This document shows, one piece after another, positions 57,370 to 59,156 of a stretch of DNA of 64,000 bases. The position numbers and the translations under genes are program-made. This stretch comes from Dictyostelium discoideum (taxonomy: Eukaryota), in NCBI GenBank assembly GCA_000004695.1, contig CM000151.3, positions 5,888,001-5,952,000 of the forward strand, in the 5' to 3' direction. Within the stretch, counting starts at the first letter, position 1. Each line of letters starts with the position of its first letter. The notes under the pieces are model-generated. The model was given only the letters and a program-made list of their open reading frames with translations. It was not told the origin of the DNA and made no database searches.

Positions 57370-58896
57370 CAAAAAAAATAAATAAATAGGAAATAAATTG
57401 AATTACAAATAAAAATAATAATAAATGGAAAAATAAAACAAAAAAAAAAAAATAAAAAAATAAACAAAAAAAAATAAAATAATAAATAAACAATAAAAAT
57501 TATTTTAAATAAATTATTATAATTATTATTATTATTAATAAATTTTATTTATTAAATTCGTATAATTATATTTACTCATAAACAAATTGGGAAAAGGTAT
57601 ACTTTTATTATTGGTATTTTTAATTTCTTTTTTATATTATTATGTACGATGTTCAATTTGAAAGGAAAAAAGATAAAAAAAAAAACAAAAAAAGGTAATC
57701 TAGTTTGATTTTAGAAAAAAAAAAAAAAAAACTACCGTTATTCTTTTATATAGATAAGTTATTTATAAATTTGTTTATTTTTATCGTTTTTCTTATTATT
57801 ATTATTAGATATTGTAAACTAAAAAACTAAAGGAAAAAAAAAAAAAAAAAATTAAAAATAAAATAATGGAAAAAAAAAAAAAGGGGGAAAAAAAAAAATC
57901 TATTAAAGAAATTCCTTTATTAATATCTACCACACACCCCCCTATCTTATTTTTTTTTTCTTTTACTTTCCATATTTAAACCAAAACTAAAATTTGTGTA
58001 CGTGAATGTGTGGTTGCGTGTGTTTTGTTGAATGTGAAAGTATTTTTGTTTTAAATGTGACAAAAACAATAATATCAATAATGATAACTAAAAATAGAAA
58101 TTTGATAATAGCAATAAATGGGGATTACAATAATATTGATCATTTTACATATTCATTTTTTTATTATATATTATTATTATTATATATTAATTATATTATT
58201 TTATTATTATTATTATTATTATTATTTTAATTATTATTATTATTTATTATTAACCAGTAATAACAAATTAACTTACAGAGAGATGTTGATATTTTTGTGT
58301 GGTGACTTTTTGGTAAAAAAAACAAAAAATATTTCGAGATAAAAATAAGTTTATCAAAATGAAAAAAAAAAAAAAAGAAAAAAAAAGAAAAAAAAAGAAA
58401 AAAAAAAAAAATTGATTTTGGGATATTAATAAAAATTTCTTTGAAAAGCTTCCTCATTTTTAAAAACTCTCTTGATATTAAAAAAATAACTTATAAATTA
58501 ATTAAAATTTATTTTTATAATAGTCTAAATTATTTTTTTTTCATTTTGTTGCGGGGATAGAAAAAATCTAGTTTGCAATTTTTTTTTTTTTAAAAAATTT
58601 AAATCTTTTTTTTTTTTTTTTTTTTTTATTGATTATATTATTTTTTTAAAAAAAAAAATTGATTTATTTTTTTTTTATATAATATTTTTTTATTTTTTTT
58701 TTTTTTGTGAGTCTATTTTTTGAAAATTCCATTTTTTTTTTTTTTAATTAATCATACTTTTGATTTTCCAGTCATTTTCAATGATATGAGTAAAGCATAT
58801 CAAATAGGTTTTTGGACGACAAAAAAAAAAAAAAAAAATAAAATAAAAAATAAAAAAAAAATAAAGATTTTCTTATTAAATTATTAAAAACTAAGT

Positions 58897-58905
58897 ATCC
58901 CACAA
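58897..58905 (+). promoter_or_regulatory. DUSE-like upstream element (ATCCCACAA) for the Class I ncRNA gene.
   Basis: It matches the [A/T]CCCA[C/T]AA Dictyostelium upstream sequence element reported upstream of snRNA and Class I RNA genes (established knowledge). It lies about 90 nt upstream of the conserved motif, somewhat further than the reported ~60. Confidence 0.45.
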
Positions 58906-58991
58906 AATAACTTTTTATTAAAAATTTTGTAAATAATTTATTTTATAAATCTATGTTTTAATGTGTAAAACATTAAGTTAACACACAATTA

Positions 58992-59052
58992 AGTTGACCT
59001 TACAGCAAATCTTAAAGCTACTTCATTCTAAGAAAAACTCCTGTCAACTGTC
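58992..59052 (+). ncRNA. Class I ncRNA gene (Dictyostelium-specific small RNA).
   Basis: It contains the exact 11-nt Class I motif CCTTACAGCAA at 58998-59008. It is immediately preceded by AGTTGAC, which can pair with GTCAACT at 59044-59050 to form the 5'/3' terminal stem. A T9+ run follows. Length is about 60 nt, within the 42-65 nt class range. Confidence 0.7.
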
Positions 59053-59156
59053 TTTTTTTTTTTTTTTTTTAATTTCTAATATCCCAAATAAATTGGCAAC
59101 CCACTGTAGGGTTCTGGATAGATTATAATTGAGAACCCTTTGCATTTTGGTATTAA

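Follow-up and report, generated by a model that had tools for sequence, protein, structure and literature searches.

A segment of Dictyostelium discoideum chromosome 2 as the known Class I RNA gene r41, encoding DdR-41

Does a short intergenic segment close to a tRNA-His gene of Dictyostelium discoideum encode a Class I RNA and, if so, which member of the family is it? The original prediction, made from the sequence alone, placed here a Class I noncoding RNA (ncRNA) gene with a promoter element resembling the DUSE (Dictyostelium upstream sequence element). We analyzed the segment in the context of the window, by which we mean the whole stretch of 64 000 nucleotides (64 kb) that contains it, and all positions are those of the window unless stated otherwise. 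As the definition of the class we used Dictyostelia Class I RNA (Rfam RF01414; Aspegren 2004, Avesson 2011, Kjellin 2021).

Identity of the locus and its surroundings

An Rfam covariance-model scan of the whole window returned four matches above the gathering score, namely three tRNAs and one match to Dicty_Class_I_RNA (RF01414). The latter lies at 58993-59050 on the plus strand; its score, 49.5 bits, exceeds the gathering score of 41.5. All 56 model positions (1-56) are covered. In the search of the whole window the E-value is 1.5e-6, and a local scan recovered the match with E = 2.3e-8. Compared with the RF01414 consensus, the sequence has a 2-nt insertion in the variable loop and is otherwise typical. 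We also compared the segment, as a text string, with the curated D. discoideum sequences (ddi_curated.fa) from the supplementary code archive of the catalogue paper for Class I RNAs (Kjellin et al. 2021, Genome Research; PMC7919456). Window positions 58993-59050 turned out to be identical (58/58) to the curated entry for DdR-41, GTTGACCTTACAGCAAATCTTAAAGCTACTTCATTCTAAGAAAAACTCCTGTCAACTG. Thus, a covariance-model scan and an alignment to known DdR sequences, two of the means by which the Class I assignment had been proposed to be checked, both bear it out.

According to the dictyBase GFF entry contained in that archive, r41 (DDB0237332, gene DDB_G0295513) is located at DDB0232429:5946993-5947050 (+) (PMC7919456). 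These chromosome coordinates differ from those in the window by a constant offset of 5,888,000, and the window therefore corresponds to chromosome 2 positions 5,888,001-5,952,000. The published r41 and the locus have the same 58 nt, the same DUSE with its 10-nt flanks, the same TGTG box variant, the same distances (86/26/60) and the same strand; nothing differs between them. In the catalogue, r41 has a covariance-model score of 49.4 and a classifier score of 66.9, the cut-off for the latter being 32 (PMC7919456). We conclude, with a probability of about 0.96, that 58898-59070 (+) is the chromosome 2 gene r41 (DDB_G0295513), encoding the Class I RNA DdR-41. No evidence contradicting this identity is present in the data examined. 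The significance of the assignment rests on the combination of elements and not on single pieces.

Since the locus is identical to the published r41, the prediction of a Class I ncRNA gene with a DUSE promoter element correctly recovered a gene that was already known and named. DdR-41 already has a dictyBase gene and an entry with expression data in the 2021 catalogue, and its family is covered by Rfam. The rediscovery adds no new biology. Its value is one of calibration: a reader without tools recognized a lineage-specific ncRNA class from its motif-plus-stem signature, correct to the base. The further statement that this is the clearest noncoding gene in the window stands in that the ncRNA gene is real. 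However, such ranking is subjective, and the three tRNA genes score higher in the Rfam scan.

The locus was expected to be intergenic, next to a tRNA-His/Thg1-like pair, and this is where it lies: its flanks are a RasGAP-domain gene on one side and tRNA-His followed by a Thg1-family gene on the other (Table 1). No ORF of at least 60 aa overlaps 58458-59240. DdR-41 and tRNA-His converge, their 3' ends being ~145 bp apart. Between these two ends, at 59108-59139, is an inverted repeat of 8 bp that is relatively rich in G+C (AGGGTTCT / AGAACCCT, 16-nt loop). It was considered as a further ncRNA and set aside, having no Rfam match and a fold z-score of -1.6.

Several other features of the neighborhood deserve a brief description. 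The tRNA-His and the Thg1-family genes are divergent neighbors, 393 bp apart. Thg1 is the tRNA-His guanylyltransferase family, and the adjacency of the two genes may be coincidence. The Thg1-family ORF matches a bacterial-type Thg1-like protein (TLP; 4kgk, E = 3.6e-26) far better than eukaryotic Thg1 (3otb, 7cv1 and 3wbz, E = 3.6e-8 to 8.4e-10), and is therefore a TLP rather than a canonical Thg1. Past the 3' end of each of the three tRNA genes of the window (those for His, Asn and Gln, which lie on the minus strand) there is a second B-box-like element, at a distance of 27-45 nt; these elements fit the 'external B box' that many D. discoideum tRNA genes have. Upstream of DdR-41, the N-terminus of the RasGAP ORF comprises ~250 residues made up almost wholly of ERLERE/ERIERE-type repeats, and the opposite strand of this ORF harbors a 240-aa serine/arginine-rich shadow ORF. 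Downstream, a long artefactual run of isoleucines marks the mechanical start of the ALIX V-domain ORF, and the minus-strand ORFs upstream of it (62174-62536, 62748-63149 and 63215-63541) look like further exons of one intron-containing gene.

A permissive whole-window Rfam scan, a local scan and a motif search allowing up to two mismatches revealed no second candidate in the window having both a Class I stem and promoter. The nearest published Class I neighbor, r44, is at chromosome 2 position 5,966,046, ~19 kb further and outside the window (PMC7919456 archive). At 6452-6572, both strands gave sub-threshold matches to mir-598 (38.4 bits, gathering score 69) and MIR5304 (31.2 bits, gathering score 75); this segment is most likely an AT-rich hairpin and not a member of either family.

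Table 1. Features of the r41 locus and of its neighborhood in the 64-kb window
Feature	Position	Strand	Basis or remark
DUSE TCCCACAA, putative promoter element	58898..58905	+	Pattern match, PMC7919456 table
TGTG box, variant TAATGTG (consensus AAATGTG)	58959..58965	+	Position search; Supplemental Table S2
Conserved AA before the first G (family 'AAG' start)	58991..58992	+	Sequence and family description; outside the mature RNA
Mature Class I RNA DdR-41, 58 nt	58993..59050	+	RF01414 match, identity to DdR-41, dictyBase GFF
5' half of terminal stem, GUUGAC	58993..58998	+	Covariance model, fold, member comparison
Conserved 11-nt motif CCUUACAGCAA	58998..59008	+	Exact match; PMC7919456 motif table
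Variable region with a weak internal 5-bp hairpin (UCUUA/UAAGA)	59009..59042	+	Fold
3' half of terminal stem, GUCAAC	59043..59048	+	Covariance model, fold, member comparison
Conserved 3' end CUGU	59048..59051	+	Sequence and family description
Run of 18 T, candidate RNA polymerase III terminator	59053..59070	+	Sequence
RasGAP-domain ORF, 1082 aa	52660-55908	-	PF00616, E = 1.4e-42; upstream neighbor of DdR-41
tRNA-His	59195-59266	-	Rfam
Thg1-family ORF	59660-60535	+	PF04446, E = 5.9e-33
ALIX V-domain ORF	within 60745-63541	-	PF13949, E = 2.7e-76; downstream
Second B-box-like element, tRNA-His	59158-59168	-	GGTTCGATTCT
Second B-box-like element, tRNA-Asn	46129-46139	-	GGTTCGAATCC
Second B-box-like element, tRNA-Gln	19918-19928	-	TGTTCGATTCC

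Structure of the mature RNA and its closest relatives

[quoted passage not shown] DdR-41 has the median length of the 37 curated members (58 nt), and its G+C content is 36%, compared with 22% for the window. Together with the preceding AA, the first G makes up the AAG start at 58991-58993. All six pairs of the terminal stem GUUGAC/GUCAAC are Watson-Crick (6/6). As had been anticipated for the fold of 58992-59052, this stem forms in both the minimum free energy (MFE) and the centroid structures. The original prediction described the stem as AGTTGAC paired with GTCAACT (59043-59049). The two strings are indeed complementary, but the family-defined stem has 6 bp. A58992, the base needed for the seventh pair, precedes the mature RNA, as the first nucleotide of D. 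discoideum Class I RNAs is the G. The fold energy of 58992-59052 is ordinary (z = -0.6, with 58 of 200 shuffles folding as well), and we dropped it as support for the gene, it being no better than that of shuffled sequences.

AGTTGAC (58992-58998) runs into CCTTACAGCAA, the DNA form of the conserved 11-nt motif, at 58998-59008, both being exactly where they had been reported. The first C of CCUUACAGCAA doubles as the last stem base, and the motif is predicted to be mostly single-stranded in the folds. The motif table in the supplement of PMC7919456 lists CCTTACAGCAA for DdR-41 at position 6. In the 64-kb window, CCTTACAGCAA occurs once, on the plus strand, and there is no other occurrence with at most one mismatch; the mean number of such matches expected by chance is 0.49, at least one being present in 40 of 100 shuffles. 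The oligo(T) run noted downstream of GTCAACT is also there, as 18 T.

Comparison of the 37 curated D. discoideum members showed that each of the six stem positions is occupied by a standard pair in 95-100% of them. Double-sided changes of the stem are seen in DdR-35, 36, 47, 65, 66 and 67, for example from GUUGAC/GUCAAC to GCUCGC/GCGAGU. The terminal UG is common to all 37 members and the motif C-CUUACAGCAA to 32 of them. The 12 curated DfiR sequences of D. firmibasis include neither an identical sequence nor a clear ortholog of DdR-41.

When DdR-41 was compared in turn with each of the other 36 curated DdR sequences, DdR-25 and DdR-24A/B (53 identical positions each) and DdR-26 (52/58) proved to be the closest relatives. 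Like DdR-41, these RNAs are 57-58 nt long and have the stem GUUGAC/GUCAAC and the 11-nt motif, the overall identity being 88-91%. Their genes also have the DUSE TCCCACAA and the 60-nt DUSE-to-TGTG spacing. The 5-6 substitutions that separate DdR-41 from them fall within the variable region and the C-rich tract preceding the 3' stem (AAAAACUCCUG versus AAAACCUUCCG); the positions specific to DdR-41 are those of AAAGCUAC in the former and of AAAAACUCCUG close to the 3' stem. In addition, the TGTG box is 26 nt from the start in DdR-41, whereas it is 10-13 nt from the start in DdR-24A/B, DdR-25 and DdR-26. The genomic arrangement differs as well: the genes for DdR-24A, DdR-24B and DdR-26 are no more than ~12 kb apart, whereas DdR-41 is the only Class I gene in the window. 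DdR-24A/B and DdR-26 are assigned to chromosome DDB0232431 and DdR-25 to DDB0232430 (PMC7919456 archive). DdR-21, the member whose function has been studied, resembles DdR-41 in class, stem sequence, 11-nt motif, DUSE TCCCACAA and the long TGTG-to-start distance (29 nt). In contrast to DdR-41, it is 55 nt long, has another variable region and is represented by ~100-200 times more reads.

Promoter elements and expression

The DUSE-like element that had been noted upstream is present as ATCCCACAA at 58897-58905 and contains the DUSE TCCCACAA. The MEME site given for r41 in the supplement of PMC7919456, 'AAACTAAGTA TCCCACAA AATAACTTTT', is identical to window positions 58888-58915. The DUSE ([A/T]CCCA[C/T]AA) is canonically ~60 nt upstream of the transcription start (PMC7919456). 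[quoted passage not shown] At the r41 locus, G58993 is 88 nt from the end of the DUSE and 95 nt from its start. The TGTG box, TAATGTG at 58959-58965, was absent from the original prediction; it starts 61 nt after the DUSE start. Supplemental Table S2 of PMC7919456 gives for r41 the DUSE TCCCACAA at a distance of 86, TAATGTG at a distance of 26 (that is, 26 nt upstream of the start predicted there) and an inter-element distance of 60. Thus, the DUSE spacing rule holds only via the TGTG box, the direct DUSE-to-start distance being 86-95 nt and not ~60 nt. The DUSE consensus WCCCAYAA by itself is not enriched in the window (4 found versus 10 expected). We therefore dropped enrichment as support and considered only the position relative to the TGTG box to be informative. 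Just one of the four DUSE matches in the window, the one at DdR-41, has a TGTG box ~60 nt downstream. According to the authors of the catalogue, the TGTG box may act as a further promoter element, or a precursor may begin there; they also note that downstream T runs suggest RNA polymerase III, and that a DUSE occurs at Pol II genes as well as at Pol III genes (PMC7919456).

According to published RNA-seq data, growing cells express DdR-41, as do cells developed for 4 h and 8 h (PMC7919456). The read numbers are 3752/3454 at 0 h, 7265/10110 at 4 h and 7815/9596 at 8 h, and the read-coverage validation flag is 1 (PMC7919456). According to its authors, read coverage validates an RNA of the predicted size (PMC7919456), so that the proposed refutation by lack of such a transcript already has a published answer. 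The same table has no northern blot entry for DdR-41. The raw counts climb from 0 h to 4-8 h, whereas the class is down-regulated during development (PMC7919456); the counts are unnormalized and represent early time points only.

For DdR-24A, DdR-25 and DdR-26 there are ~120,000-330,000 reads, and for DdR-21 ~0.8-1.8 million (PMC7919456). The reads of DdR-41 are ~30-40 times below those of DdR-24A/25/26, amounting to 2-4% of theirs, and DdR-41 appears to be a low-abundance member of the Class I pool. Promoter differences were considered as an explanation for the low number of reads and rejected. TAATGTG is also found in the abundant DdR-25, DdR-31 and DdR-32, and the long TGTG-to-start distance is common to the abundant DdR-21, DdR-29 and DdR-32; DdR-21, with its 29 nt, is the most abundant of all (PMC7919456).

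Alternative explanations and possible function

[quoted passage not shown] Individual elements would permit this: 40 of 100 shuffles contain the 11-mer with at most one mismatch, the fold z-score is -0.6 and the DUSE 8-mer is unenriched in the window. However, the covariance-model score exceeds the Rfam curated threshold, the identity to a curated, expressed gene is full-length, and the DUSE, TGTG box, AAG start, CUGU end and T18 run are all in register. The absence of any ORF of at least 60 aa overlapping 58458-59240 also speaks against this view. Such an origin, to which we assign practically no probability, is refuted by the covariance match, the identity to DdR-41 and the published expression. 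It is also very improbable that the locus is a pseudogene, i.e. a silent or decaying copy of DdR-24/25/26 whose reads are mis-mapped from paralogs that are 88-91% identical and 30-40 times more abundant. What might suggest this is that the counts for DdR-41 (~3,500-10,000) are just 2-4% of those for DdR-24A/25/26 (~120,000-330,000), that only 5-6 positions distinguish it from these paralogs, that the table of PMC7919456 lacks a northern entry for it, and that its TGTG box is the weaker variant, TAATGTG. Yet 5-6 differences in 58 nt normally suffice for unique mapping. Moreover, the high-scoring r54, DdR-57, DdR-45 and DdR-62 have ~0 reads and a read-coverage flag of 0, as opposed to 1 for DdR-41, which means that cross-mapping is not general. 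The DUSE is perfect and correctly spaced, the stem, motif and termini are intact, and the abundant DdR-25, DdR-31 and DdR-32 have the same TAATGTG box.

The remaining alternative alters only the biogenesis step and not the identity of the gene. It is possible, although on balance we consider it unlikely, that the mature 58-nt RNA arises by cleavage of a transcript with additional 5' sequence, beginning at the TGTG box or close to it (~28-34 nt upstream), in which case the relevant spacing would be that between the DUSE and the TGTG box. In D. discoideum genes the DUSE-to-TGTG distance is fixed at ~60 nt, while the distance from the TGTG box to the mature 5' end ranges from 8 to 29 nt (26 nt here). 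This is the pattern expected of a transcription start followed by processing, and the authors of PMC7919456 themselves name the possibility. On the other hand, no precursor has been reported, and DdR-35 and DdR-36, which have no TGTG box, are well expressed with the DUSE 58-60 nt from the mature start, so that direct initiation at G is possible. A more elaborate reading, which we regard as quite doubtful, joins two proposals for DdR-41: a 5'-extended precursor would start from the TGTG box (~26-34 nt upstream) and be trimmed to the mature G, and the lower level of the RNA would be set post-transcriptionally, its few substitutions in the C-rich tract and variable region making it less stable or a poorer ligand of Rnp1A. 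The low level would then not be due to the promoter, since the DUSE and spacing are the same as in DdR-24/25/26.

For DdR-41 as the product of the expressed gene r41, a function can at present be extrapolated from the family only. The literature searched contains no mention of DdR-41 in the main text of any paper. [quoted passage not shown] The proposals of the authors are pairing with mRNAs, or sequestration (sponging) of proteins such as Rnp1A (PMC7919456). Structure probing, Rnp1A binding and the knockout phenotype pertain to DdR-21 only and not to DdR-41.

By analogy with these relatives, transcription of DdR-41 would depend on the DUSE acting with the TGTG box 60 nt downstream, the latter serving either as a second promoter element or as the start of a 5'-extended precursor. 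Transcription would probably end at the T18 run, suggesting RNA polymerase III. The resulting 58-nt RNA would be closed at its ends by the 6-bp stem and would present CCUUACAGCAA in a single-stranded form. In the cytoplasm, the RRM protein Rnp1A and others like it may bind DdR-41. The Class I pool as a whole may modulate early multicellular development, either by buffering RNA-binding proteins or by pairing with mRNAs. Because DdR-41 differs from its abundant paralogs at only 5-6 positions and yet has 30-40 times fewer reads, it represents a convenient natural variant for asking what sets the levels of Class I RNAs and whether a precursor begins at the TGTG box.
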